Positions 5,976 to 37,480 of a stretch of 64,000 nucleotides of DNA are shown here, in pieces. The first letter of the stretch is position 1. Every line of letters begins with the position of its first letter. The notes beneath the pieces were generated by a model. The model did no database searches and was not told the DNA's origin. It saw only the letters and a program-made list of their open reading frames with translations. Source of the stretch: Moorena sp. SIOASIH (GTDB taxonomy: Bacteria; Cyanobacteriota; Cyanobacteriia; Cyanobacteriales; Coleofasciculaceae); NCBI RefSeq assembly GCF_010671925.1, contig NZ_JAAHIH010000001.1, forward strand, positions 549,053 through 613,052, written 5' to 3'. A program made the translations under genes and the position numbers.

Positions 5976-8900
5976 TCACGGATCACCAACTAGCAGGAAA
6001 GCAGCCCAATAATAGGGATGCGTAAAGCTTTGTTTTCCAAATCCTGACAATTCTGAGGATAAAGCAATTTTCTTGCCAGAGCTATATAAGTGATCATTCT
6101 CGATCCGGACATTGCCTCGAATCATTGCCAACTGTGCCTGTCGCAAGGCTTCAGTTTTACTCGGTGTCTTGTTCAACTGACGGTAAAACTCTGTAGTCAG
6201 CCCCATAGCCCCTTGGTCACTGACAGACCAAAGGGTTGCTAGAGTGGAGTCAACCCCTGCCTGAAACGCTGATCCAGCAAAACCTAACTCTGCTTCCCGA
6301 TTTCCCAAAGCCGTTTGGCAAGCGCTGAGTACCAACAACTCTACTGATGGCTCATAAAACAGATTTTCCAGTTCATCGAGCCCCAGTTTTTTGTCCCACA
6401 TTTGAATATAAGAATTTTCAGGAGCTCCTCGATTAAACTGAGCATGGGTAGCTAAGTGAATGATGCCAAATTTCCGCTTTTTTCGTTGAGCCTTTAAATT
6501 TTCCAGAGTGAAGCTTTCGTTGAGAAAATAGTTACCTTCCCACAGTTTTTTGTCGATAATTGTTTCTAACTCGACTTTTACCCAAGGCAAATCCTCTTTA
6601 TCAGAAAATTGGGAGGCTCCCATCGCCAGCAGTCGCAAGGATTGAACATTGCTAAACCGAGAATAGGTCAAACTAAGGCTAGGCACCAGGCTGACACTAT
6701 AATTTTCTACTAGATAGTTCTTTTGATCGTGCAGAGCAGCCAGGGGTAGAGAGCGCAAACCCTGATCCATGGCAAATATCAGGCTCTCGATCTTATTAGC
6801 TTTTAACTCAGACTCCAACGGTCCGATCAGCCATTGGTAAAGTTGCTGAGCTGCTTTGAGATGATCCTTATCATCCAAGTTTCGGGGATTTATCAGTGTT
6901 CGATGAAAAGTCCTGGTCACAGCTAGGACTTCAGCACGATTGGCGTTATAGACTCGCCGCAGAATTGGATTACCGTCTGCTTTGATCAGCAACAGTTCTA
7001 GCTGGTCATCGCTTTGTTGTAAGCATTTTTCCGGTTCTGAAGGTAGATCAGAGGTTCGGTAACCAAATCGTCGGTCAATTTCGGCTGCTGGGATTGCCGG
7101 AGTTTGGCATCGCGTTCCTGGCAATGTCAGGGAGTTTTGGACAAAACTGACATAAATAACCCCAGTCTTGAGACCCTTCTCCCGCTCAAGCTCACGAATG
7201 CGATCGCGCACATCATTCTGAGTATAAATTTTGGTCTTGAGCTGTCGCAGAAAGTATGCCTGATATTCTTCTGTGAAGGCTTTTTCTATGCCATACACTA
7301 GGTCACTTTTAACGGTCGCCTCTAGTGTGATTGGTTGCTCTACCGGTGGTGGAACCTCTGGTGGTGTTATTGATGAGTTATCCGGTGTGGGGATTGTTGA
7401 GTCTACCTGTGGTGAAACTGCTACATCCTTCTGTACTACAACCGTTACATAATCTGGCGCTAGGACTGTAACATCATCCGGTGGTGTAACCGTTGAGTCA
7501 TCGGGTGGTAGGACTGTAACATCATCTGGTGGTGTAGCTGTGCCATCATCCGGTGGTGTAACTGTGCCATCATCCGGTGGTGTAACTGTGCCATCATCCG
7601 GTGGTGTAACTGTGCCATCATCCGGTGGTAGGACTGTAACATCATCCGGTGGTGTGACTGTGCCATCATCCGGTGGTGTGACTGTGCCATCATCCGGTGG
7701 TGTAACTGTGCCATCATCCGGTGGTGTAACTGTGCCATCATCTGGTGGTGTGACTGTGCCATCATCCGGTGGTGTAACCGTTGAGTCATCCGGTGGTAGG
7801 ACTGTTACATCATCTGGTGGTGTAACTGTGCCATCATCCGGTGGTGTAACCGTTGAGTCATCCGGTGGTGTAACCGTTGAGTCATCCGGTGGTGTAACCG
7901 TTGAGTCATCCGGTGGTGTAACCGTTGAGTCATCCGGTGGTGTAACCGTTGAGTCATCCGGTGGTGTAACCGTTGAGTCATCCGGTGGTGTGACTGTGCC
8001 ATCATCCGGTGGTGTGACTGTGCCATCATCCGGTGGTGTGACTGTGCCATCATCCGGTGGTGTACCTGTGCCATCATCCGTTGGATCTCCCGGATTAATA
8101 CTAATCTCTCCTCCTGTACCTTGGATAGCATCTAACCGTGAGTTAGATGCTATTTGTGCTCGTATTGCTTCTACATCAGTTTCGCTAGTAATGTCAGGAG
8201 CGAAGACTATGATATCACCACCATTCCCACTCCTCTGAGCTTGTGTGTTGATATCAATATCATCAAAGTTAACATTGTTTGAATCTGGAACATTAAAGGT
8301 TATGTTACCAGAATCACCACCGTTTGATGCCTCGGTAATAATTCTGAGAGTCTCACCATTTACCTGAATGCTTCCCTCTGCAGTTTCCAAGGTTACATCA
8401 CCAGAATTACTACCCCCTGTTTCTGTCGTCCTGATCGTGGTAATAATCAAACCATCATTATTACGGAATATAATGTCATCTTGAGCTGATAAGATTACAG
8501 GTCCAGCATCACCCTGATCAGAACTCGTGTCGATATTACCAATAGTGATACTCCCTTCAGATGAATTCTCTTCGAGATTAGAGAATTCTGTTCCCTCTAC
8601 GGTGACTGATTGATTAGGATCAAGATTAACTGGATTACTCAATTGATCCTCACTCAAACCTGCTCGCAAAATCAGAGAGCGGCGTTGGGTCAAATTCTCA
8701 AAATCTGGATCTGAAGTGGGAATCGAGCCAGTGGTATCTGGCTGTGTGATCTCGATATTTCCCCCCTCAATACTTCCGGTAGACTCTACTTTCAGAGAAG
8801 CTCCTGTATAATCCCCAAAGATGACATCGCCTCTAGAGATAATAATCGGGTCATAGAAGCTCAGAAAATTACCTGGTTTACCAGATAAATTCAGAATCGA

Positions 8901-10082
8901 GAAACTACCACCACTGGCAAAGTGAGCATCTCCGGAAATAATCCCATCACTAACTAAACTGAGATTACCGCCACTCTGAAAGGGTGTCTTGGGATGATTC
9001 AGTGCCAGAATATCAATGCCTAAATCCCCCTGAATGTAGAGGTCTCCTCCCGCTATAGCATTGAAGGGATTATCGAGTGTATCCCTTACCACCACTTTAT
9101 TCTGAGCCAGTAGGTTTAAGTCTTTTGTGGTAGACAGCTGGCTTTCTACTAGAGTCAGGTTATTCTTCGCGGATAGGGTTGCAGTCTCTGCGGTTACTTT
9201 TTTAGCAGCTACATCTCCAGACTCCAAAGTGATGCCTGAATCTTTCAAGGTCACAGTACCATCACCATTATCCTGGAATTCTGTGGCATGACCTACATCA
9301 GCGCCAGTTAAAAGTTCAGGCAATTGCACAGGTGTCAAAGATTGTTGGTCAGTGAGTAGGGGGTGAATTTCCAAATTGAGCAAGTGCCCCTCTTGGCTAA
9401 TTTTAACTAAACTTTCCCCTGGTACAGCAGCTACCGTAATTTTTCCCTCTTGTGCTGCCAGTTCTCCAGTACTGATCACAGTGCCACCCAGTAAGGTTAG
9501 GTTATTTCCTGGTGTCACCTCTAGCTGGCCCTGATTGATAATGGCTCCTGGTGTACCTAATGTCTCGAACCTAAACACACTAGGTGTTCCAATTAAAGAA
9601 AAGTAGTCGTTGCTACCAAAGGCACTAAACCAATTATTATCACCAAAGCCAATACCTGTAGCGGTGGTAGCGGTGAATGATCCTGGAATGTTCAGCTGGG
9701 AATCAGCACCAAAAATTATCCCCGCTGGATTCATTAAAAACAGGTTGGCGTTGCCCCCTGTGACTTGGATGAGACCGTTAATCAATGAAGCGTTGCCACC
9801 TGTAACCCGATTGAGAATGTTTTTTATACCGGGTTGAGACAAAAAATTAACAATTTGGTCTTGGTCTAAACCAAACTCCTGAAAGCTGTGAAATAGATTA
9901 GAGCCATCACCTGATCGAGTACCTCCGTCAATATCAAAGCGATTACCATCTTGGATAACTTCCGTGTCAGTAGTGCCATCGCTTTGAATCGGCTGTGCTA
10001 TTGTCGGTATAACCCAAAGAATTCCTGTCAACACATAGAGAACGCTCAGGGATTGACTAATTGGGCTCACAGCTAATTTCAT
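5976..10082 (-). CDS. Large secreted protein with four parts: signal peptide; TPS (filamentous haemagglutinin N-terminal, haemagg_act) domain; beta-helix-like G/N-rich region with a PPDDGTVT octapeptide array; C-terminal CHAT (caspase-like) protease domain
   Basis: The N-terminus [31 protein letters not shown] is a signal peptide. The TPS hallmark is …[31 protein letters not shown]… . About 36 octapeptide repeats follow. The C-terminus carries the CHAT His/Cys dyad context ([11 protein letters not shown]…[12 protein letters not shown]). Confidence 0.8.
7330..8090. repeat. 24-bp tandem repeat array (~36 copies; consensus CATCATCCGGTGGTGTAACTGTGC / …CGTTGAGT) inside the TPS-CHAT gene. It encodes (T-P-P-D-D-[GSV]-T-V)n.
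   Basis: Directly visible. Copies differ at one or two positions (G/S/V). Neighbouring copies are identical in blocks, which suggests ongoing expansion and homogenisation. Confidence 0.95.
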
Positions 10083-10417
10083 TTGGCTTATTGGTAAAAT
10101 CTCGGTGATCTTAATCGGTTTTAATTTTAAATTTAAATTGCTAGATACTTAACCAACTTCATCGAATCTTTTATTATATAGTTAAATTTATTACTATCTT
10201 TAGAAATTAGGTTTTAGGTTAGTTAATATTTTCACATAATCCTGATTATCTTCATCAAATAAATACAAATAACACCTATAGTTAGTGGTAAAATCATCCT
10301 TCTAGTTTAACCGTGAAATAAATAATGTCAAATCTGGATTGATTTTTATAAATTTACCAAATCTTATCGATATCAAAACTCATCTATTATTGCTATAATT
10401 AATGCCAATATCAAAAA

Positions 10418-23448: not shown

Positions 23449-26400
23449 CTAAAAGCCATTGCCAATCATAATAAACGGTGCCCAGTAATAAGGACTATTA
23501 TAATGACTGTTGATCAAGCCTATTTGCGCTTGACGCAATGCTTCCGCTATGGTAATATTACCCTTAAGCATGGTTTGGTAAAAAGCATCCATTAGTACCT
23601 GTGTCCCTTGGTCATCAACAGACCAGAGGGAAGCGATGGTTGCTAGTGCTCCTAAGCGTTGCATCTGATAACCAAAGCCTAAAATTTCTTCACCATTACC
23701 CAAAACTCCACCAACACCAGTTTCACAAGCACTAAGCACCACTAAATTCACACCATTGAGGTTCCAGGTTTCTAAATCTCGGAGCGTAGCCAGCTCGCAA
23801 TTACCAAATAAGATAAATGAATCCTCTGGTTGACCTGGTAAAAAAGCAGCATGGGTGGCTAGATGAACAATATTGTAGTTGTTATTGTTGTTGTTGATCT
23901 GCTCAACTATAGTGCTAGGTTTAAAGTCTTGTTGAAACAGTTTTGTAGTCTCCGGAATCAGAGCTGCAATAGTTTCTACTTCAACACCAGCAAACCTTAA
24001 GCCAGAAAAGTTAAACGGACGTTTCCCTAACTGGAATTCACATTCCCCTGAGGTAAAGGCAGCAGATAGTACCCGGGGTTGCCTAGGAAGGTGATTATTG
24101 AGGTTAATGAAACTAGCAGCAGTAATAGTATTAATACTATAGCGCTCAACTAACCATTGCTCCCCATCATGGAGCGCAGCCAGAGGAACATAACGCAATA
24201 TACCATCTGGAGCATAGAGGATAGTTTGAGCTTGGGCTTTAGTAAGGTTGTCTTCAATGGGCTTAATTAGCAAGTTATAGAGTTTTTGTGCCTCTGCTCT
24301 GGCCTGATTGACTCTAATCCTATCAGTGATGGCGCGACGGAATTTTGCGATCACATCCTTGAGTTGTTCGTGATTGATCGTTACCGAATGATGGATAGGG
24401 AATGAGTCAGCAGTAACCAGTACCAGTTCCAGACGGTCTTCTAGAATTAGCGGATACAACAACACAGCGTTTTGCTCAAGCTGGCGCAAGCTATTTTGCA
24501 AAATGTCTAGATAACTGACATCCAGACGCTGTTCTCTGGCTTGTCGTCTTAGCTGTTGCACCAGTTTCACCACATCAGGACTGGAGATAAATTGCTCAAA
24601 TGATGGGCTACTATCTTGGGACTCCGTCCTCTTGAGTAGAGAATTAATCCTGTTGCTAATCCCCTGTTCCAGAGACAGCAATCCAATCCCTTCGAGTGTC
24701 TGTTCATTGCCTTGGACATTACCCAAGTAATCCTCTAATTCTTGAATTTTCAGCAAATCCAGCACTCGTTGAGCTTCAATCACTCGGTCAAATTGCAGCA
24801 ATAGGTCAGCGAGATGACGATAGGTATTAGCAACAGTTTGTGTAAAGGATTGCTGTTGTTCTTGAGGAAGTGGTTTTAACTCGTCCCGAATCTGTTCAGT
24901 CAGATTAACCGATAACTTGTAGAAAATGATGGCTAACTCAGGTTGCTTCTGTTTTTCCAGCACTTGACCGATATTGCTGAGAGTAATTCCTTCCGCTGAA
25001 CGGTCACCGATATCTCGAAAAATTACCAAAGCTTCTTGCAGCAATGCCATGGCTTGGGAATCTTGATCTGTATTAACATAAGTACCTGCAAGAGAGTTGA
25101 GAATCCGACCCTCCCCTGCTATATCACCAATCTCTTGTGCGATCGCTAGGGCTTGCTGATAAGAATTTATCGCCTTAGGATACAGACCAATACTGGAGTA
25201 AACACCACCAATCTGATTGAGAGTATTACTTTCACTGATAAGATTATTAATATCTTGAGCAATGGCTAAAGCTTGCTGATAGGATGCTAAAGCTTGGGGA
25301 TACTGATTGAGGCGTTCGTAAATGACACCAATACTGCTAATAGTCAGTCCAACCCCTGATTTATTGTCTATCTCCCGATAAATTGCTAAAGCCTGTTCCA
25401 AAAAATCTAAGGCTTTGGAGTACTGTCCTAAACCTTCATAAACACCGCCAATATTAATGAGCGTCTTCGCTTCACTAGCTGGATTACCGATTTTTTTATG
25501 AATCGCTAAAGCTTGTTGATAATAGTCTAAAGCTTGGTAATATCGACTACGATTATAGTAAACTCCACCAATAGTATCAAGAGCATTAGCTTCCCTGGCG
25601 GGATTGTTAATTTCAGTAGCAATAGTTAAAGATTGCTGGTAGGATGTCAAGGCTTGATCATACTCTCCGAGATTTTCATAAACGGTGCCAAGGTTGTTAA
25701 GGGTATAACTAACACTATCCTTATCTCCTAACTCATTAAGAATAGCCAAGGCTTGTTGATGATACTCTAGCGCCTGTGTATAGTCACCAGTCTGACCAGC
25801 AATCAATCCTAAATTATTATAAATTCGTCCAACACTTGCTCGATTCCCAATTTCTCTAGCAATCACCAGTGCTTTTTGATAGAAATCCCTGGCTAGGGAA
25901 TACTCACCACTATTGTAGTAAACTCCACCAATATTATTAAGGGTGCGTCCTTCATCAAAGGGATTATTAGTTTCCCGACGAATCCCTAAAGCTTGCTGGT
26001 ATAACTCCAAAGCTTGGTCATAGTCACCCTGATTAGCATAAATTGCAGCAATATTATGCCAGGATTCCCCGATGATATCACGATTACCAATAGTGGTAGC
26101 CATCTCCAAGGCTTGCTGGTGTAACCCTAGTGCTTGAGAATAGTTTCCTAGACGGCGATAAACAAAGCCTATATTATTAAGGGTTTCTGCTTGTCCTCTA
26201 CTATCTTCTAGTTTTTGACGAATTATCAAAGCTTGCTGCAATGTGTCTAACGCTTTTGGATAGTCACTCAATCCGATGTACACTTGACCGATGTTGTTGA
26301 GAGTTGCAGCAACACCCGCTTTGTCGTTTAGTTGTCTACGAATTGCTAAGACTCGTTGATAGGTGGCTACGGCTTCACGAAACTGTCCCTGACGAAATTG

Positions 26401-26631
26401 TTGGATACCTTGTTCAAAGAGTTGGTTAGCAATAGAAGTTTTGCGGACGCGAAACCTGACACCACTGCGCCAATCCTGTTTCGGAATGCTGGGGAAATCC
26501 TGTGCAACAGCTTTGTCAAGTTGTAGGAATACTGGTGGGGTATGTACATCCAACGTTACTCCCAGAATTATTAATAATTCTAGGAGAGTTTTAACTGGAG
26601 TGATATCATAAAAACCTGGAGGCATAGGCAC
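23449..26631 (-). CDS. TPR-repeat protein with C-terminal CHAT (caspase-like) domain
   Basis: 1060 aa. About 12 tetratricopeptide repeats (…A[LI]..YQQAL.I…). The C-terminus carries the CHAT dyad context (YNIVHLATHAAF… VVLSACETGVG). Confidence 0.8.
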   Translation of the reverse strand: MPMPPGFYDITPVKTLLELLIILGVTLDVHTPPVFLQLDKAVAQDFPSIPKQDWRSGVRFRVRKTSIANQLFEQGIQQFRQGQFREAVATYQRVLAIRRQLNDKAGVAATLNNIGQVYIGLSDYPKALDTLQQALIIRQKLEDSRGQAETLNNIGFVYRRLGNYSQALGLHQQALEMATTIGNRDIIGESWHNIAAIYANQGDYDQALELYQQALGIRRETNNPFDEGRTLNNIGGVYYNSGEYSLARDFYQKALVIAREIGNRASVGRIYNNLGLIAGQTGDYTQALEYHQQALAILNELGDKDSVSYTLNNLGTVYENLGEYDQALTSYQQSLTIATEINNPAREANALDTIGGVYYNRSRYYQALDYYQQALAIHKKIGNPASEAKTLINIGGVYEGLGQYSKALDFLEQALAIYREIDNKSGVGLTISSIGVIYERLNQYPQALASYQQALAIAQDINNLISESNTLNQIGGVYSSIGLYPKAINSYQQALAIAQEIGDIAGEGRILNSLAGTYVNTDQDSQAMALLQEALVIFRDIGDRSAEGITLSNIGQVLEKQKQPELAIIFYKLSVNLTEQIRDELKPLPQEQQQSFTQTVANTYRHLADLLLQFDRVIEAQRVLDLLKIQELEDYLGNVQGNEQTLEGIGLLSLEQGISNRINSLLKRTESQDSSPSFEQFISSPDVVKLVQQLRRQAREQRLDVSYLDILQNSLRQLEQNAVLLYPLILEDRLELVLVTADSFPIHHSVTINHEQLKDVIAKFRRAITDRIRVNQARAEAQKLYNLLIKPIEDNLTKAQAQTILYAPDGILRYVPLAALHDGEQWLVERYSINTITAASFINLNNHLPRQPRVLSAAFTSGECEFQLGKRPFNFSGLRFAGVEVETIAALIPETTKLFQQDFKPSTIVEQINNNNNNYNIVHLATHAAFLPGQPEDSFILFGNCELATLRDLETWNLNGVNLVVLSACETGVGGVLGNGEEILGFGYQMQRLGALATIASLWSVDDQGTQVLMDAFYQTMLKGNITIAEALRQAQIGLINSHYNSPYYWAPFIMIGNGF

Positions 26632-27818: not shown

Positions 27819-29211
27819 ATGAAATACACGTATCAATATCGACTATATCCAGAGACTCAACAAACACTCACACTGAACGAGTGGCTGCGAGTTGGTCGAT
27901 ATTGGTATAACCGGATGTTGGGTGAGCGTTTTGATTGGTGGGAGAAAAATAGATGTCCGGTCAATGCCTGTCCATTAATCTGTTACCTTCCGGAGCTTAA
28001 AGATCAGCCCAATTTATACAGCCAGAAAAAGCAACTTCCAGTTATCAAGAAAGACTTGGTTAAGATTGGATGGTCTGGAGAGTTGATAGACTTTACTGAG
28101 GTTTATTCAACTGTTTTGCAAGATGTCTGTACAAGAGTAAAAAACGCTTTTAACAGGTTTATAGCAGGTGACAAAAATGGTAAACGCAGTGGCAAGCCTC
28201 GATTTAAGAATGTTGCCAGATATCGGACGTTAAACTTTCCAAATGCTTATAATTCTTGGTTAAAGTTCTGTACTGTTAACGGAAAATGGTTGTTTGTTCA
28301 AGTTCCTAAAATTGGTTTGATTAAGCTGAGAATACACAGACCGTTACCTGATAGTGCAAACTTAAAACAGCTATCAATTACAAGGAAAGCTGACGGATGG
28401 TACTGCAACCTGAGCCTAGAGGATAAGTCCGTGCCGGAGTTCAACCCTGATGACATTATTCCTACTTGGGAAAACTCAATTGGAATGGATGCTGTTCTAG
28501 ATAGAGGCTTTTATCTAGCAATATCCGATGGCAAGAAACTCCCCTCGCTTAAACCACTTCGTCGGAATCAAGACAAGTTAACCAAAGTTTCTCAACGGAA
28601 AAATAAGCGTAAAAAAGGAAGTAAAGCCAGACGTAAACTAGCAAAACGGGAAGCCCGTATTCATCAACAGATAGCTAGGAGTCGTGAAGATTTCCAGTAC
28701 AAAACTGCTCATCAACTGGTGAATACAGGTAAGAAAGTCTTCTTTCACGAGAAGCTGAACCTCAAGGGTTTAACTCGTCGCAATACTCCTAAACGAGGGC
28801 GAGATGGTACGTTCTTATCCAATGGTCAATCATCAAAATCAGGACTTAACAAGTCTTGGCTAGATGCAGCCTTTGGTCAGTTCTTTGAAGTGCTGGGTCA
28901 GGTAGCCGCAAAAGAAGGGCGCCAGTGTAGTCGAAGTCAAGCCAAATTACACATCTCAACTCCTCTCTTATCGAGATGAATTTGTGTTCACCGACCGAGA
29001 TATGCGAGAGTATTTCGATGAGGAACTAAAGCTGATTGTCGATAGAGATGTCAACGCATCAATCAACATAAAGCGAGTCGGGCTGGATGTGTTCCCGACT
29101 ATAAAACGCCGTAGAGGGAAGCCTGTAGTTGTTGAATCTACTACTAATAGTACCTCGCAGGAAGCTCTGACCGCTCTTTATGAGCATCAGAAGCCCACAC
29201 TGAAAGCGTAG
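27819..29211 (+). pseudogene. tnpB: TnpB (IS605 OrfB) disrupted by a frameshift near 28925. The RuvC-III segment continues in another frame and no zinc-finger cysteines are seen.
   Basis: ORF1 ends …VAAKEGRQCSRSQ… . The alternative frame reads …VVEVKPNYTSQ…FTDRDMREYF… and joins the 28984 ORF, which carries DRDVNASINIKRVG. Confidence 0.7.
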
Positions 29212-31566: not shown

Positions 31567-31947
31567 TCAATCGAGCCAATTAAGAATCCCTTGGATTTCC
31601 TCGACCAATTCCATAGGTTTAAACGGCTTGGTAATAACTCCAGTTACCCCCAAATCTAGAAACTGCTTTTGCTCGCTGCTCCTAGCTTTAGCTGTTAGCA
31701 AAATTGTTGGGATGTCCGCCGTTACTGCATTAGCTTGTAACTGTCGAAAGGTAGCCGGTCCATCCAGCTCGGGCATCATTACATCTAGCAGAATAGCATC
31801 AGGCTGATCTGCCTCAGCCTTAGCTAATCCCTCCTTACCAGAAGCAGCTGTCAACACTTCCCACCCTGCTGCTGCTTCTAGAGAAAATTGGATGATTTCT
31901 CGAACCCCATCATCATCATCAATCACTAAAATGCGCTTAGTTGTCAT
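31567..31947 (-). CDS. CheY-like single-domain response regulator. Its start overlaps the stop of the upstream histidine kinase by 11 nt.
   Basis: MTTKRILVIDDDDGVREII… with DAILLDVMMPELDG and TAKA…KP. Confidence 0.8.
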   Translation of the reverse strand: MTTKRILVIDDDDGVREIIQFSLEAAAGWEVLTAASGKEGLAKAEADQPDAILLDVMMPELDGPATFRQLQANAVTADIPTILLTAKARSSEQKQFLDLGVTGVITKPFKPMELVEEIQGILNWLD

Positions 31948-34816
31948 GGTTCTCACCTTCTGCTGCTGCTGTTTCTTTCGGTAAGGTAAAATAAAAACTG
32001 CTGCCTTCACCAACAGTACTCTCAACCCAGATTTTGCCTCCGTGCTGCTCCACTATATTACGGCAAATCGCTAACCCTAAACCCGTCCCTCCCTTTTTAC
32101 GGGCATCGGAAGCATCAACCTGTTGAAAACGCCCGAATATACTTTCAAGTTTGTCAGCCGGAATTCCCCTACCTTGGTCTTTAACGGTAAATAAGATCAT
32201 GGCACTGTTTGGGTCAGGGGGTGAGGTGGTTTCTGGTTCCTCTGGCTGTTGCAGTTCCACTGTTAACCATAGGCTAGAACCTCTGTCTGAAAATTTAATC
32301 CCATTGCTGAGTAAATTGGTTATGACTTGAATAATGCGATCGCTATCAGCCTCGAATTCAATCTCAGATTCAATAGCTTGGGGCGAGACTTCCAATTTAA
32401 TCCCAGCTCGATTAGCCATCACCTGCACCTGATCAACAGCTTTAACCATCAACTCAGCTGCATTCACTGGCTGCTTAGACAAACGGATCTTACCAGATTC
32501 CAGACGTTCCAGCTCCAAAATATCGTTAACCAGTCGCACTAAACGCTCAGCACTGTCAGCGGCAATGCCAATTACACGCTGTCCTCGTTCAGACTGAGGT
32601 TGAATTAGACCAGTTGATAACAGGTTCAAGGCACCATGAATTGAGGTTAGGGGGGTACGGAGTTCGTGGCTGACCACGGAGGTGAATTCATCTTTCATCC
32701 GTTCAATAGCGTAGCGCTCGGTAATATCTTCCCCAATACTCATGGTGCCAATTGCCTCTCCCTGGACATTTTGGAGTAGAGTATTATTCCAAGCAATGAT
32801 TTTTTCTTGCTTTGACTTGGTGAGAATCGAGTGCTGATAGTGGGGTTGAAAGTCTGGATCTAGGATGTCCTGGAAGTATTGCTGTACTGACTTTTGCTGG
32901 GAATTGGGCAGGAAGTTTTCAAACCAGTCCTTGCCTAAAACTTCTGCTTCTGTGTACTTAGTCAATTCTAGGAAGAAGGGATTGACATACTCCACTTTAC
33001 CCTGTCGGTCTAGTCCCACCACCACCAGTCGCACATGTTCGAGAAGGCTGCGCCACCGTCGCTCTGATTCCTGTAAGCTAGCAATTAACTGGGTACGTTC
33101 TTGTTCAAATCGTTTACGTGAAGTAATATCTCGCTGCAACACTAAGATATAGCTAATGTTTCCTTGAGTATCATGAACCACTGAACAAGAGTAGTCTGTG
33201 GTAAGAATTGTCCCATTTTTGCAGACAAACTCAATTTCTTGACGATAGGTTCCCTGCTCCAGTAAAACTGGAAACTGTTGCTGGCAAATGTTTTGGTATG
33301 TGGGGGTAAAGAACTCTTCTAAGCGATTACCGATCAATTCTGATTCAGCATAACCTGACTGGTGGATGACAGCCGGGTTCACTTGCTCAATCATGCCCTG
33401 AGTATCTAATATATGGATAAAATCTGGGGCAGATTCAAACAACGAACGGAATCGTTGTTCGCTTTCGAGTAAAGCAGCTGTGCGCTGTTGAACCCTAATT
33501 TCTAATTCTCGATTGAGTTGTTGTAATTCTCGATTGAGTTGTTGCAGTTGAGCTTCTTGCTGTTTACGCTCCGTGATATCCGTAGTGATGCCGTGAAGAT
33601 GTACAGAGGTGCCATTATCACGCCTAACCACACGAGCGCGATCGTTCAGCCAGCGAATTTCTCCATTACTGAGCTGAATTCTATATTCTAAATCCCACGA
33701 TTCACGACGATTTTCTTGAACAGCTCGCCATGCTTTCTCAACATGCTCAAAATCTTCTGGGACAATAAACTGTCGCCATAGGTTGTCTTGATCGCTGAAT
33801 AGCTCGAAAGTTGGGCGACCGTAAACTTGCTCGAAGGCTAAATTAACATAGCGCAGTATCCCAGAAGGCAGTGATACTGACCACACCACGTCTTGAAGAG
33901 AACTCATAATTGCTCGGAGCCGCTCTTCGTTGGACTTAAGTGCCTTTTCATTTTCTTGAAATGCTTCTTCTGTCTGCTTGCGTACGCTAATATCCGTAAT
34001 TGAGCCAACCACCCGCACTGCATCACCTGCTTCATTCCAAAGTGCTTGTCCCTGGTCAAGAATCCATTTGTAGCTGCCGTCGTTGCACTGTAAGCGATAC
34101 TCTTGAACGTAATAGGGGGTTTTCTGAGCCAAGTGATCCTTCATGGCTTTTATCACCTGGTCTACATCATCGCGATGAATGTGTGTCCGCCATTGATGGT
34201 TATAGTTTCCGATGTCGTAGTTTTCATCATACCCCAGCATTTCCTTACATCGGCTGGAGAAAAAGGTTTCATTGGTTTTGGGGTTCCAGTCCCAAATTCC
34301 CTGATTAGCTCCCTGTAGTGCCAATTGCCAGCGTTGCTCACGTTTTCGTAAGGATTGCTCTGCCAAAATACGCTCTTCAATTTGAGATTTTAGCTCCTGG
34401 TTGAGCTGCTCAAGCCTAGCCAGACTGGGAAAAGCGAGGACTCGAGGTAGAACAGAGAATAAATTTATGGCAGTGTAGACAGAAACTATAGCTGTAATTG
34501 CTTTAATAGAGCCTGATAGCCAGTAAGCTGGATACCAAAGCGTCCATAGTTCCATCAGGTGAGTGGTGCCAGAGGCAATAATCAACGCCCCAAACAAAAT
34601 CAAGAGTCCCTTGAAAGGCAGATCCTGCCGCTGCCTAATCAAGTACACTAGCAGTATGGGAATCACATAGTAGGCTAGGGTAATTAGGGAATCACTGATC
34701 AGGTGCAGCCAGATCAAGTTAGGCTGCTGGAGGTAGCAGTTGCCTTGGAGAATAAACGTTTCGGCAAATAGGAGATAGTCAAAGAAATTGATCATAATTA
34801 GGTTGACAATTGACAT
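31937..34816 (-). CDS. Hybrid-type sensor histidine kinase: N-terminal ethylene-receptor (ETR1)-like three-helix membrane domain, multiple PAS/PAC domains, HisKA and HATPase_c
   Basis: The N-terminus …ISDSLITLAYYVIPILLVYLIRQ…FGALIIASGTTHLMELWTL…AITAIVSVYTAINLFSVLP aligns with the ETR1 ethylene-binding domain. The H-box is EFTSVVSHELRTPLTSI, followed by a G-box region. Confidence 0.75.
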   Translation of the reverse strand: MSIVNLIMINFFDYLLFAETFILQGNCYLQQPNLIWLHLISDSLITLAYYVIPILLVYLIRQRQDLPFKGLLILFGALIIASGTTHLMELWTLWYPAYWLSGSIKAITAIVSVYTAINLFSVLPRVLAFPSLARLEQLNQELKSQIEERILAEQSLRKREQRWQLALQGANQGIWDWNPKTNETFFSSRCKEMLGYDENYDIGNYNHQWRTHIHRDDVDQVIKAMKDHLAQKTPYYVQEYRLQCNDGSYKWILDQGQALWNEAGDAVRVVGSITDISVRKQTEEAFQENEKALKSNEERLRAIMSSLQDVVWSVSLPSGILRYVNLAFEQVYGRPTFELFSDQDNLWRQFIVPEDFEHVEKAWRAVQENRRESWDLEYRIQLSNGEIRWLNDRARVVRRDNGTSVHLHGITTDITERKQQEAQLQQLNRELQQLNRELEIRVQQRTAALLESEQRFRSLFESAPDFIHILDTQGMIEQVNPAVIHQSGYAESELIGNRLEEFFTPTYQNICQQQFPVLLEQGTYRQEIEFVCKNGTILTTDYSCSVVHDTQGNISYILVLQRDITSRKRFEQERTQLIASLQESERRWRSLLEHVRLVVVGLDRQGKVEYVNPFFLELTKYTEAEVLGKDWFENFLPNSQQKSVQQYFQDILDPDFQPHYQHSILTKSKQEKIIAWNNTLLQNVQGEAIGTMSIGEDITERYAIERMKDEFTSVVSHELRTPLTSIHGALNLLSTGLIQPQSERGQRVIGIAADSAERLVRLVNDILELERLESGKIRLSKQPVNAAELMVKAVDQVQVMANRAGIKLEVSPQAIESEIEFEADSDRIIQVITNLLSNGIKFSDRGSSLWLTVELQQPEEPETTSPPDPNSAMILFTVKDQGRGIPADKLESIFGRFQQVDASDARKKGGTGLGLAICRNIVEQHGGKIWVESTVGEGSSFYFTLPKETAAAEGENHDN

Positions 34817-35423
34817 GATTGCTGACAGTCAACCGTTAACCATCAACTGTGAATAAAATGTGATCAACTCTACTATGTCCGATCTCTAAATTCTATGTCC
34901 AGTGGCATACTCCTACACTGACTCTGCTCTTACAGAGCCGCTCCGGGAACGAGTGAGCGTGTAGGCTTGAAGCCAACTCCACCCAACGGTATCGGCTTTC
35001 GCCGACGCTGCGCGAACGGATACGTAGGCTTGCTTTATTAACGACACGGTCAGAAGTTACCCCAGCGAGCAATCCCTCGCTGGGGCAGCCTTTATGGTTA
35101 GTCGGTTATGCGTAAAGAGTTAAAACTTTATGATTAAGGCCAGAGACGAATTCTTAGGATAGGGTCGCCTTTATAGTTTGTAGGTCATGCAAAATAGGGT
35201 TAAGTCTCTTGTAATAAGGCGACCCTATCCTTACGGAGACTTCAAACCCTATTCTAAGGTTTCGTCTCCGGGATGCCCCGACCCGCCGGAACAATACAAA
35301 AATTCGATTTTTTCCCTAGTAAATAGCTGACAAACCAGCATTTAAGGCCGTAGGCCACGCGGGGCGCGTTCGGCTTTGTTTATCAGTAGATATATTATAG
35401 CAATTCCATACATACTCTGTGCA

Positions 35424-35472
35424 AAATCCATCCCACACCTAATGCGCAGCATAGGTGTGGGATGAATTTTGC
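35424..35472. mobile_element. Orphan IS200/IS605-end-like palindrome (CAAAATCCATCCCACACCT…AGGTGTGGGATGAATTTTG)
   Basis: Its arms share CAAAAT[TC]CATCCCAC…GTGGGATGAATTTTG with the IS end at 27286-27335. No transposase is adjacent. Confidence 0.5.
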
Positions 35473-35497
35473 CGGACAGCTAACTGACCAGAGTTAT

Positions 35498-37480
35498 TTA
35501 TTTATCTGACAACATTTGATTCTTCTGTGCTATCGTTCTTATCCTTAGTTTACTGCGCTCAATGCGATTCAACACCCGAGCTAATAGCTCCGGTGCCCTG
35601 ATTGGTTTTTGTACGTAATCATCTGCCCCTGCCATAAACACTTGCTGCACAGTTTCAGCATCTTGAACAGCTGATAGAAACAGCACGGGTAACTCACCCC
35701 AGCGAGGGTCATTGCGTACCACCTGGCACAGGTCAATACCGCTAAACTCCGGCATTTCCACATCCAAAATCAGTAAATCTGGACTACACTGCTCTATGGT
35801 TTCCCAGAACTGTTGTGGATCGTTTAGCAAAGTCAATTCAAATCCCCAAGGTTCTAGCACAGTGCGTAGCTGATCCAGGATTTGAGGGTCATCGTCAACA
35901 ATCAATAGCTTTGCCTGTGGTGGACCGGATTGTTGCAACGCTTTAGCGATCGCAGCCATGACCTTTTGAGGTGCTACAGGCTTCTGAAGAAAACCCCTTC
36001 CTCCCAAACGAGCCACTCTGACTCGTTCAGCAAAACTCTCTTGAGCCGTAAATACTACCACAGGTACAGGGGGCTCAGTTGTTTTCAGTTCTTCTAACAG
36101 CTCGAAACCATTTCCCGCTGATTCAGGAAAACACAAGTCTAGTAGTACCACATCGGGGCGGTTACCAGCAATTGCTTTTCTCCCTTGAGATATATCACCC
36201 GCCACCTCAACCTGAATTTTCCAGGCTGCTAGCTCTGATGCCAACCCTTGCGCTAGTGTTAAATCATCATCCACAATCAGTAGTCGTGGGGAGTGGGGAA
36301 TCGGGAATCGGGAGTAGGAAGTGGGTAGTGGTTGACTTTGAGTAGGTTTTGGAAGGTTATCCTCGGTCTCTAGTTCTTGTCGTAGTTCTACCACTAGTTG
36401 AGACAGATGTGCTATAGTCTCTTTGCTAGCTTTTTTCCCAGATTGCAATATCTCCTCAATTTCACGGGATTTGAGAGAGGCTTGATCAAATCCAAAGCTA
36501 CCGAGGGAACCGGCTAGGGTGTGTGCCTCCCGTAAAGCCTCCTGTCGCAACTTTCCGGTAAGATTACCATCTCGCCAATCCGTCACCGCCTGCTCCAATA
36601 CATTGACCCGCTTGATATACTTTGACTTCTGCTGCTGCCAAATGGCACTTAATCCTGATTGCTTTGGTTCTTCGGATTGAGCATTAGGGACTGGGGAAAG
36701 GGAACTATCACTCTTGACCTTTGAGTGTTTCAGGTTAGATGGGGTCTTTTTCCCGGCTTTTTTGCCTTTGTTTTTCTCAGTCTTTGTTTGACCTGAACCT
36801 TTCTCAGGCGGTTGTCTGAGCCGATAACCCAAGCCATAGACGGTTTCAATTAAATCATTTTTGGCTCCAGCTTCCTTGAGTTTCCGCCGTAAACTTTTGA
36901 TATGAGCTCTAACGGCATTTTCTGTAGGGGGTTCTTCAAAAGACCAGAGATTATCTAGCAGGAAACTTTGGCTAAAGATGCGGTGGGGATTCCGTAAAAA
37001 CAGCTCTACTAGACCATACTCCTTAGGTGTCAGATGTAATAGTTCCTGATCGTAGCTGACCTGGCAGTTACTGGGGTCAAGGTGCAGTAATCCCCACTCA
37101 AGCACCGGGAGTAGGGGGGTGCTGCTGCGGCGCAGCACTGCTCGAATTCTGGCTAATAATTCAGGTATGTCTAAGGGCTTGACTAAATAATCATCCGCTC
37201 CTGCGTCTAAAGCTTCGACTTTGTTAGTGCTGGTGTCTTGGGCAGTGAGCAGTATAATCGGAGTGCGATCGCGTGCGTTTCGCAGCTGCTTGCACAAATC
37301 AATCCCCGTGAGCCTGGGGAGCATCCAATCTAGCAAAATCAAGTCATACTTAAATATCTCTGCTAGTGCTATCCCCTCATCCCCATCTGTAGCTAGATCA
37401 ACCTGATAATGTTGACTAGCTAGCGCTGCCGTTACCACTTTGGCAATACCTTCATCGTCTTCTACTAGCAGGATTCTCAC
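35498..37480 (-). CDS. Multi-domain response regulator: REC, OmpR-type winged helix, HPt-like domain, REC, REC
   Basis: REC1 is MRILLVEDDEGI…DLILLDWMLP. The wHTH is …LTPKEYGLVELFLRNP…VYGLGYRL. HPt-like is EALREAHTLAGSLGSFGF. REC2 is LLIVDDDLTLAQ. REC3 is KLLIVDDDPQIL…LILDVEMP. Confidence 0.75.
   Translation of the reverse strand: MRILLVEDDEGIAKVVTAALASQHYQVDLATDGDEGIALAEIFKYDLILLDWMLPRLTGIDLCKQLRNARDRTPIILLTAQDTSTNKVEALDAGADDYLVKPLDIPELLARIRAVLRRSSTPLLPVLEWGLLHLDPSNCQVSYDQELLHLTPKEYGLVELFLRNPHRIFSQSFLLDNLWSFEEPPTENAVRAHIKSLRRKLKEAGAKNDLIETVYGLGYRLRQPPEKGSGQTKTEKNKGKKAGKKTPSNLKHSKVKSDSSLSPVPNAQSEEPKQSGLSAIWQQQKSKYIKRVNVLEQAVTDWRDGNLTGKLRQEALREAHTLAGSLGSFGFDQASLKSREIEEILQSGKKASKETIAHLSQLVVELRQELETEDNLPKPTQSQPLPTSYSRFPIPHSPRLLIVDDDLTLAQGLASELAAWKIQVEVAGDISQGRKAIAGNRPDVVLLDLCFPESAGNGFELLEELKTTEPPVPVVVFTAQESFAERVRVARLGGRGFLQKPVAPQKVMAAIAKALQQSGPPQAKLLIVDDDPQILDQLRTVLEPWGFELTLLNDPQQFWETIEQCSPDLLILDVEMPEFSGIDLCQVVRNDPRWGELPVLFLSAVQDAETVQQVFMAGADDYVQKPIRAPELLARVLNRIERSKLRIRTIAQKNQMLSDK

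Follow-up and report, generated by a model that had tools for sequence, protein, structure and literature searches.

A gene in the window (i.e., the whole 64-kb stretch of Moorena DNA that was analysed) encodes an exoprotein that joins an N-terminal two-partner secretion (TPS) domain to a C-terminal CHAT protease module, and this TPS-CHAT protein is probably a processing or signalling protease of the envelope or the extracellular space, with export by a TpsB transporter and proteolytic activity both predicted. The complete gene occupies positions 5976..10082 of the reverse strand and represents an intact open reading frame (ORF) of 1368 aa with an ATG start and a stop codon at 5976-5978 (ORF list and translation). 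The ORF list, the translation and Pfam searches agree with an earlier note on this DNA, which had described a 1368-aa ORF with a TPS domain at the N-terminus and a CHAT domain at the C-terminus, and the motifs quoted there were found at aa 115-131 (a 17-residue motif), aa 1209-1214 (HLATHA) and aa 1252-1257 (LSACQT). The earlier note had left a choice between a secreted or surface-displayed protease and a contact-dependent effector; the former is the best reading of the protein, as predicted here.

The N-terminal segment (aa 1-30; 9993..10082, reverse strand) resembles a signal peptide, as had been claimed, judged by inspection and from an AlphaFold (AF2) model. It presents Lys2 followed by a hydrophobic core (aa 10-27; 15-residue Kyte-Doolittle mean up to 1.77) and has IAQ/P at its end, and it forms a low-confidence helix (aa 6-18) outside the fold of the AF2 model. 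The TPS domain (aa 32-242; 9357..9989, reverse strand) was matched by the haemagg_act family PF05860 that the earlier note had proposed (E 2.8e-49, 168.8 bits against a cut-off of 33.5; Pfam), by TIGR01901 (adhes_NPXG) at aa 64-141 (E 1.5e-25; NCBIfam) and, in a phmmer search, by the HxuA secretion domain 4i84. Its NPxG motif reads NPAG (N118-P119-A-G121), with N118, P119 and G121 invariant among 41 homologues. The TPS domain is followed by a conserved shaft rich in G, S, T, N and D (aa 243-660; 8103..9356, reverse strand), which shows 50-63% identity within the family. The AF2 model of aa 1-665 (pLDDT 82.1, pTM 0.83) consists almost entirely of short beta-strands, and its top Foldseek matches in the PDB were HxuA (4rm6/4rt6), HMW1 (2odl), EtpA (8cpk/8vbb) and HpmA. 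The TPS domain and the shaft are thus predicted to form a right-handed beta-helix, in line with the beta-helix segment suggested previously. For the N-terminal 665 aa, all significant profile and fold matches were TpsA proteins (for PDB matches, E <= 1e-3), and TpsA proteins (HxuA, HMW1, EtpA, FHA, ShlA/HpmA) likewise combine a signal peptide, an NPxG-type TPS domain and a right-handed beta-helix shaft. On the other hand, the cargo here is a CHAT cysteine protease, the window gene has no adjacent tpsB whereas classic TpsA proteins are encoded in tpsB-tpsA operons, and the host is a free-living cyanobacterium rather than a pathogen.

A spacer composed largely of P (21%), D (20%) and T (19%; composition of aa 661-960) separates the shaft from the CHAT module. 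A regular-expression count with constant 8-residue spacing identified a tandem array of 26 in-register units of the type PPDD[GSV]TVT (aa 675-882; 7437..8060, reverse strand), i.e., 12 PPDDGTVT, 8 PPDDSTVT, 4 PPDDVTVL and 2 variants, rather than the approx. 36 copies of PPDDGTVT estimated earlier; Tandem Repeats Finder reported 25.8 copies with a period of 24 bp at 7465-8084. The array continues into a degenerate Pro-rich tail (aa 883-939; 7266..7436, reverse strand; translation). This spacer is hypervariable; the copy number is 22 and 20 in the two M. producens proteins closest to this one and 0-4 in other Moorena orthologues. ORFs on the opposite strand within the gene (7540-8238, forward strand, and others) were rejected as artefacts, as they are antisense readings of the repeat.

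The C-terminal part of the protein is a separase-like CHAT module (aa 940-1368; 5979..7265, reverse strand; Pfam, AF2 and Foldseek), and the CHAT assignment of the earlier note therefore stands; its size of about 330 aa does not, as the conserved, foldable module comprises approx. 430 aa. The Pfam core of this module (PF12770; aa 1076-1367; 5982-6857, reverse strand) was matched with an E value of 2.1e-67 (228.1 bits against a cut-off of 24) across profile positions 2-289 of 289. Sequence-level searches of the PDB with the module, both with the single sequence and with a profile, yielded no match. The AF2 model of the module (pLDDT 82.7, pTM 0.85) found its best Foldseek match in the PDB in Csx29/TPR-CHAT (E 4.5e-13, approx. 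410 aligned columns), with further matches to separase (1e-8), SAVED-CHAT, the CHAT domain of DdvA, gingipain and CED-3; Csx29 and separase aligned to the module across 360-580 columns. The module is predicted to adopt a two-lobed caspase-hemoglobinase fold with a pseudo-protease lobe and an active lobe, so that both ends of the protein fit the beta-helix plus caspase fold that the earlier note had envisaged.

The predicted catalytic residues are His1213 in the HLATH motif (codon 6444..6446) and Cys1255 in the LSAC motif (codon 6318..6320; both on the reverse strand and checked at the codon level). H1209, H1213 and C1255 are invariant among 41 homologues, and both the His and the Cys motif are kept in 146 of 150 cluster representatives, consistent with the intact dyad reported earlier. 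The spacing of 42 between His1213 and Cys1255 equals that of the catalytic dyad of Csx29, which is H585/C627 (PMC9729208). The module is apparently an active protease, as predicted from the dyad and the modelled fold.

Csx29/TPR-CHAT (the Craspase protease) and separase share the two-lobed caspase-like CHAT module; they are cytoplasmic or nuclear proteins regulated by TPR/Cas7-11-RNA or by securin, whereas the TPS-CHAT protein has no TPR, carries its CHAT module behind a secretion domain and shows only 13-15% sequence identity with them. The CHAT module also has paralogues in cyanobacterial cytoplasmic TPR-CHAT (HetF-type) proteins, one of which is encoded in the window at 23449-26631. Its CHAT domain is 33% identical over 366 residues (E 2e-40) and its HLATHA and LSAC motifs align with those of the TPS-CHAT protein (the His1213 motif aligning with IVHLATHA), but it carries N-terminal TPR repeats instead of a TPS domain and beta-helix and has no signal peptide. 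The secreted clan-CD proteases gingipain RgpB, clostripain and MARTX CPD also place a caspase-hemoglobinase fold outside the cytoplasm, with RgpB representing a weak fold match (E 1.8e-4; Foldseek); they differ in being exported by T9SS, Sec or T1SS, in not belonging to the CHAT family and in the absence of a pseudo-protease lobe. A thiol protease in an oxidising compartment calls for explanation, and we counted this against our preferred explanation; gingipains and clostripain are thiol proteases that work in such a compartment.

The TPS-CHAT architecture is widespread among filamentous cyanobacteria, where it has already been annotated, contrary to the rarity implied by the earlier note. All 120 best database matches were cyanobacterial, 118 of them with both Pfam domains (TPS and CHAT), and when the CHAT module was compared with clusters at 50% identity, 106 of the 150 best representatives also had a TPS domain. 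At 50% identity, the family falls into hundreds of clusters, and filamentous and mat-forming cyanobacteria encode several paralogues in each genome; the databases name these proteins only "CHAT domain-containing" or "filamentous hemagglutinin family" protein. Across genera outside Moorena, the CHAT module shows 42-57% identity and is C-terminal in every case. At the protein level, the only hint is one de novo peptide from a water extract that was assigned to a Nostoc "CHAT domain-containing protein", which is weak evidence (PMC9895726).

The window gene is the orthologue of an already annotated M. producens protein, without its partners. Two M. producens orthologues aligned at 100% coverage (P0001 with 92% and P0002 with 89% identity), and dN/dS values of 0.27-0.42 (against the orthologues and one paralogue) indicate that the gene is maintained. 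M. producens 3L keeps the synteny around the gene. In the window, 234 bp separate its 3' end from a convergent amine-oxidase gene, and M. producens 3L shows this arrangement as well. A consensus scan placed two weak sigma-70-like promoter matches (10/12 each) 220-330 bp upstream of the start codon (10304..10414, reverse strand), and the number of sites that promoter and terminator scans returned in the region was no greater than expected by chance.

Searches by tblastn with three cyanobacterial TpsBs revealed no TpsB gene in the 64-kb window or at the orthologous loci of Moorena, so that the absence of a TpsB noted earlier for ±6 kb holds for the whole window; CHASE2 and DUF928 genes were also absent from the window and from these loci. 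The window copy is a "solo" paralogue among housekeeping genes. Databases contain > 2700 cyanobacterial TpsB homologues, and no Moorena-named TpsB was found among the 120 matches listed per search with a Rivularia-like TpsB and Coleofasciculus TpsB queries. Some TpsB genes also stand alone among housekeeping genes, as observed on three unrelated metagenome contigs.

In related loci, on the other hand, ShlB/POTRA_2 genes adjoin TPS-CHAT genes (L005, with two pairs, L006, L026, L038, L051, L053, L056, L082, L098 and L104). The neighbourhood statistics are from a metagenome scan, while a scan of genome contigs with the N-terminal 660 aa gave 17 loci. Among the 29 related loci flanked by at least 5 kb on each side, only 5 had a TpsB gene nearby, and any of TpsB, CHASE2 or DUF928 stood beside the gene in 7 (approx. 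a quarter). The full order CHASE2, DUF928, TPS-CHAT, TpsB was observed in L051, L053 and L082, and a partial cassette in L006, L023, L041, L081, L090 and L091; CHASE2, DUF928 and TPS-CHAT are collinear and TpsB is convergent with them, and the cassette recurs across divergent loci. The domain joined to the CHASE2 sensor differs among loci, i.e., CHAT (L051, L053), Ser/Thr kinase (L081, L090, L091), TIR (L082), cyclase (L006) or histidine kinase (L023). Signal peptides occur in the DUF928 proteins, which also conserve two Cys and an Arg/Gly motif (GG[ST]RG.C); the term "DUF928" occurred in only one paper in the literature searched. PADLOC defence-system models showed no matches for DUF928, CHASE2-CHAT or TpsB, and the only match for the TPS-CHAT protein was a weak partial one of BovA to the CHAT core (E 5.6e-6, 23.6 bits). 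The presence of TpsB, secreted DUF928 and a CHASE2 sensor beside the gene in a minority of loci suggests that envelope proteolytic signalling is the normal business of the family.

We hypothesize that the protein is a type Vb passenger and carries a CHAT cysteine protease of the caspase/separase type as its cargo. As judged from its sequence, the polypeptide would be exported by Sec through the N-terminal signal peptide, and its TPS domain would then dock on the POTRA domains of a TpsB (an Omp85 protein of the ShlB/FhaC type), a partner that the pathway and the related loci point to and whose gene would lie at another place in the genome. Folding of the beta-helix shaft (aa 32-660, with the fold predicted) at the cell surface would drive export, and the strain-variable Pro/Asp/Thr spacer, which is likely extended, would set the CHAT module at a distance from the shaft. 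The module would then be extracellular, or periplasmic if the C-terminus is retained. There the protease may cleave specific extracytoplasmic protein substrates and thus act in processing or signalling rather than as a toxin injected into neighbours. We counted against this explanation that no TpsB, CHASE2 or DUF928 gene was found in the window or the Moorena loci, with TpsB near the gene in only the 5 of 29 loci given above.

A more elaborate model, which we consider possible but doubtful, is based on analogy with FhaB and CdiA, in which the C-terminus is retained. The TPS domain and beta-helix would be exposed, the Pro-rich spacer would pass through the TpsB pore and the CHAT module would remain in the periplasm until a surface event releases or activates the protease; DUF928, as a periplasmic partner, would then be cleaved, a CHASE2 receptor would read the product and a cytoplasmic TIR, CHAT, kinase or cyclase domain would respond. 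The recurrent cassette with its convergent TpsB, the interchangeable domains of the CHASE2 partner and the signal peptides, motif and Cys pair of the DUF928 proteins all argue for this outside-in arrangement, as do the dedicated neighbouring substrates of other CHAT proteases, e.g., Csx30 for Csx29 (PMC9729208), and the fold match to the CHAT of the transmembrane anti-sigma factor DdvA (E approx. 6e-7), which is an inner-membrane protein without a TPS domain. The window gene, however, has no cassette partner within the 64 kb, partners occur at only 7 of 29 well-flanked loci, and the proposed topology, cleavage and sensing are pure inference, with the DUF928 motif as cleavage site a guess. DdvA carries the CHAT fold within a signalling protein that spans the envelope. 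It appears less probable still that the CHAT module cuts only its own polypeptide, in or near the spacer, so that the beta-helix part is freed to serve as an adhesin or matrix protein, either soluble or associated with the sheath. Many large proteins secreted by bacteria do contain caspase-like domains that act as releasing peptidases (Zhang et al. 2012, PMC3482391), proteolytic maturation is seen in many TpsA proteins (PMC5422565) and the shaft is conserved in the manner of an adhesin shaft. Such peptidases are, however, typically internal and just upstream of another effector (PMC3482391), while here CHAT is the C-terminal-most domain; moreover, the CHAT module is conserved across the family under purifying selection like that on the N-terminus, and the spacer sequence varies even within Moorena, which indicates that it holds no conserved cleavage site.

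As a CdiA protein also combines a TPS domain, a long shaft and a C-terminal enzymatic domain, the earlier note had suggested that CHAT replaces the classical CdiA/FHA toxin tip and that the protein may be a contact-dependent effector that would deliver its CHAT domain into neighbouring cells as a toxin. The constant cell contact of filamentous, mat-forming cyanobacteria and the moderately high dN/dS would be compatible with such a role, which is nevertheless very improbable and was rejected. Pfam searches at E<=1 matched only TPS and CHAT, with no Fil_haemagg/FHA (FHA-1/FHA-2) repeat or PT-VENN match; the motifs VENN, VDNN, LYVN, ELYN and NEALV are absent from the 1368-aa protein; and no immunity-sized ORF (cdiI) lies downstream, as the 234 bp run straight into the convergent amine-oxidase gene. 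Furthermore, no cdiB is adjacent (tblastn, 64-kb window), the C-terminal module is the conserved part of the family rather than a polymorphic tip, and a survey of polymorphic toxins lists Tox-Caspase for T2SS, T6SS, T7SS and PVC, not for T5SS.

In the literature searched, no paper joined a CHAT domain with hemagglutinin or filamentous proteins, or PF12770 with PF05860, and TPS reviews, the polymorphic-toxin survey and the Anabaena/EXCRETE exoproteome papers were silent on the combination; a 2017 TPS review lists LepA as the sole protease TpsA and does not mention CHAT. For the window gene alone, the result is more modest, as it is the orthologue of a protein annotated in M. producens. For the family, the placement of an apparently active CHAT domain behind a type Vb domain in so large a group of proteins implies that multicellular bacteria carry out regulated caspase-like proteolysis on their surface or in their periplasm. 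To our knowledge, characterised CHAT proteases (separase, Craspase/Csx29, SAVED-CHAT, HetF) all act inside the cell, and recent work portrays CHAT proteases as tightly gated executioners. It is tempting, if unlikely on present evidence, to view the TPS-CHAT protein as the protease component, outside the cytoplasm, of a cyanobacterial signalling or cell-fate system that spans the envelope and is as yet undescribed. In this system, the exported CHAT would process secreted DUF928, a CHASE2 receptor with a swapped cytoplasmic domain would read the signal, and solo copies like the window gene would serve as extra sensors or proteases feeding the same receptors. If the CHASE2 link is functional, it would offer a testable route to what CHASE2 domains sense and to how external events are linked to cell-fate decisions in filamentous cyanobacteria; if true, such a system would represent a bacterial analogue of an extracellular protease cascade that feeds a death or immunity receptor.

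Window 5976-10082 on the reverse strand holds one intact open reading frame of 1368 codons (ORF list and translation). The protein matches exactly two Pfam families, i.e., the TPS secretion domain (PF05860; aa 32-242; E = 2.8e-49) and CHAT (PF12770; aa 1076-1367; E = 2.1e-67, full profile length), which bears out the N-terminal TPS and C-terminal CHAT domains proposed in an earlier note; the motifs quoted there were also found in the translation. The NPxG adhesin domain TIGR01901 (NCBIfam) was matched as well. By inspection, residues 1-30, with Lys2, a hydrophobic core and an IAQ/P end, look like a Sec signal peptide. The PPDDGTVT repeat, previously put at approx. 36 copies, had been over-counted; the PPDD[G/S/V]TVT array (aa 675-882) comprises 26 in-register 8-residue units, and Tandem Repeats Finder reported a period of 24 bp with 25.8 copies.

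For aa 1-665, AlphaFold2 modeling with 41 homologues gave a structure (pLDDT 82.1) of short beta-strands almost throughout, and every significant PDB fold match was a two-partner-secretion passenger (HxuA, HMW1, EtpA and HpmA), in agreement with phmmer and profile matches to HxuA, HMW1 and EtpA. For the model of aa 940-1368 (pLDDT 82.7, pTM 0.85), the top fold match was Csx29/TPR-CHAT of type III-E CRISPR (E = 4.5e-13, approx. 410 aligned columns), followed by separase, SAVED-CHAT, the CHAT domain of the anti-sigma factor DdvA, gingipain and CED-3. The Csx29 and separase matches thus indicate that the conserved C-terminal module is a predicted separase-like double lobe of approx. 430 aa, wider than the 292-aa Pfam core. 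The His1209, His1213 and Cys1255 codons were confirmed in the nucleotide sequence and none of these residues varied in 41 homologues, so that the His/Cys dyad (H1213, C1255) is indeed intact, as had been claimed; its two residues lie 42 positions apart, as in the Csx29 dyad H585/C627, which has been verified by experiment (PMC9729208). Sequence and predicted fold place the protein firmly among TpsA-type passengers and, together with the dyad, among CHAT-family proteases.

The closest matches were Moorena producens proteins (92% and 89% identity), which go by the names "CHAT domain-containing protein" and "hemagglutination activity domain protein", and gene order around the M. producens 3L orthologue is the same as in the window; the window gene has an orthologue that was annotated before. 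All of the best 120 matches listed were cyanobacterial (Moorena, Coleofasciculus, Symploca, Lyngbya, Microcoleus, Calothrix, Gloeotrichia and others), and 118 carried both PF05860 and PF12770, the remaining two being named as partial. A search with the CHAT module against 1.84 billion cluster representatives gave 4631 matches (E <= 1e-30); among the best 150 of these, the module was at the extreme C-terminus in all 150, both catalytic motifs were kept in 146, and the TPS domain was also present in 106, the rest being mostly short or truncated proteins. Across the family, conservation covers approx. 600 aa at the N-terminus and 430 aa at the C-terminus, and the middle region ranges from 109 to 1325 aa, often closing with a Pro-rich low-complexity spacer; the PPDD repeat is confined to the M. 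producens lineage, where three strains have 26, 22 and 20 copies. The dN/dS values against orthologues (0.27-0.42 at both protein ends) indicate that the gene is maintained though fast-evolving, and fast evolution of this kind is typical of exposed proteins. The orthologue of Moorena sp. SS36440bin_2 (locus L011, 10001-12460) is only 820 aa long, with a stop inside the repeat region, which points to a truncated allele or else to a frameshift or misassembly within the repeat.

Several genomes carry multiple TPS-CHAT paralogues; a second Moorena paralogue lies in another conserved neighborhood (DUF6816, TPS-CHAT, PhoH, KhpA, S16, Ffh) common to Moorena and Lyngbya. Predicted fusions of a GT2 domain (or PF11949) with TPS and CHAT were seen in database matches P0055, P0064, P0074, P0075, P0077, P0083, P0085, P0087, P0095, P0099, P0105, P0110 and P0113, and a GT2 gene lies just downstream of stand-alone TpsB genes (L106, 8588-9580; L107, 10550-11542); these may hint at passenger glycosylation or represent gene-calling fusions. 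The window also encodes, 13 kb away, a second CHAT protein of 1060 aa (23449-26631, reverse strand) that starts with a TPR array and ends in a CHAT domain (E = 9.4e-63). The 33% identity between the two CHAT modules (E = 2e-40) suggests that domain shuffling produced the secreted form from the cytoplasmic CHAT proteins common in cyanobacteria.

The window neighbors of the TPS-CHAT gene are housekeeping genes, with a convergent amine oxidase gene 234 bp downstream and MnmE upstream. One feature of TpsA systems, an adjacent TpsB gene, is missing at this locus: the reported absence of TpsB within 6 kb extends to the whole 64-kb window, where no CHASE2 or DUF928 gene was found either, and none of the matches listed in the TpsB database searches was named Moorena. 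Window 13573-18184, a cluster that also adjoins TPS-CHAT in M. producens 3L, encodes a dioxygenase of the TauD family, a pair of class-III aminotransferases that lie on opposite strands, and a D-glutamate cyclase-like protein, and may represent a small amino-acid-modifying pathway. Elsewhere are an IS605 OrfB/TnpB-like transposase ORF (27819-28979, forward strand; 386 aa; PF01385 and PF12323) and, at 31937-37480 on the reverse strand, two adjoining genes: one for a histidine kinase whose N-terminal domain resembles that of ethylene receptors (ETR1_N) and is joined to multiple PAS domains, the other for a protein of 660 aa that combines three receiver domains with Trans_reg_C and Hpt.

Partner genes were assessed in the 29 related loci whose flanks each spanned 5 kb or more, a set in which some loci may come from related organisms. 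Physical linkage to TpsB is occasional: 5 of the 29 loci have a TpsB, 5 a CHASE2 gene, and 7 at least one of TpsB, CHASE2 and DUF928; most family members are therefore "solo", as in the window. Where present, the partners form a collinear CHASE2 sensor, DUF928 and TPS-CHAT series with a convergent TpsB, complete in L051 (6668-20914), L053 (6735-17028) and L082 (5996-18447) and partial in L006, L023, L041, L081, L090 and L091. The CHASE2 protein, a membrane sensor, differs between loci in its cytoplasmic domain, which is CHAT, TIR, a Ser/Thr kinase, a class III cyclase or a histidine kinase; the DUF928 proteins carry signal peptides and share two conserved Cys as well as an Arg/Gly-rich motif (GG[ST]RG.C). 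In a Gloeotrichia locus (L005, 6791-9671), genes for a COP23 protein and two trypsin-like (Trypsin_2) proteases lie between the TpsB and TPS-CHAT genes, and a second TPS-CHAT gene carries an extra VWA domain.

In the open-access literature and bioRxiv, we found no paper joining CHAT with hemagglutinin or TPS terms and no description of the four-gene cassette; "DUF928" occurs in one paper, and PADLOC has no model for TPS-CHAT or the cassette proteins. A 2017 review of TPS systems gives a single protease cargo, LepA, and leaves CHAT unmentioned (PMC5422565), and a polymorphic-toxin survey lists caspase toxins under T2SS, T6SS, T7SS and PVC, with T5SS absent (PMC3482391). Databases therefore list the architecture, yet it is uncharacterized as far as these sources go. 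In a water extract, a de novo peptide (SLSLLGGTVV) that was attributed to a "CHAT domain-containing protein" of Nostoc (PMC9895726) is similar to a 10-residue TPS-domain consensus, a weak hint that some family member is extractable or extracellular.

The DUF928 and CHASE2 proteins figure in the main rival reading, in which the CHAT module stays periplasmic and belongs to an outside-in relay that runs via both; we regard this as unlikely, and a pure self-processing role of the CHAT domain as less likely still. A CdiA-like toxin, the contact-dependent effector raised earlier, is very improbable, as FHA repeats, a VENN motif, an immunity gene and an adjacent cdiB are all lacking and the tip is conserved rather than polymorphic; the toxin reading passed none of the CDI-specific tests.

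Alongside the established TPS domain, predicted TpsA-like beta-helix, intact CHAT module and family conservation, we somewhat favor a TpsB-exported CHAT protease acting on extracytoplasmic proteins. The protein would be exported by Sec and translocated by a TpsB encoded elsewhere, and the active protease, displayed or released, would cleave specific extracytoplasmic proteins. Stand-alone TpsB genes also occur among housekeeping genes, which fits the idea that one transporter may serve dispersed passengers.
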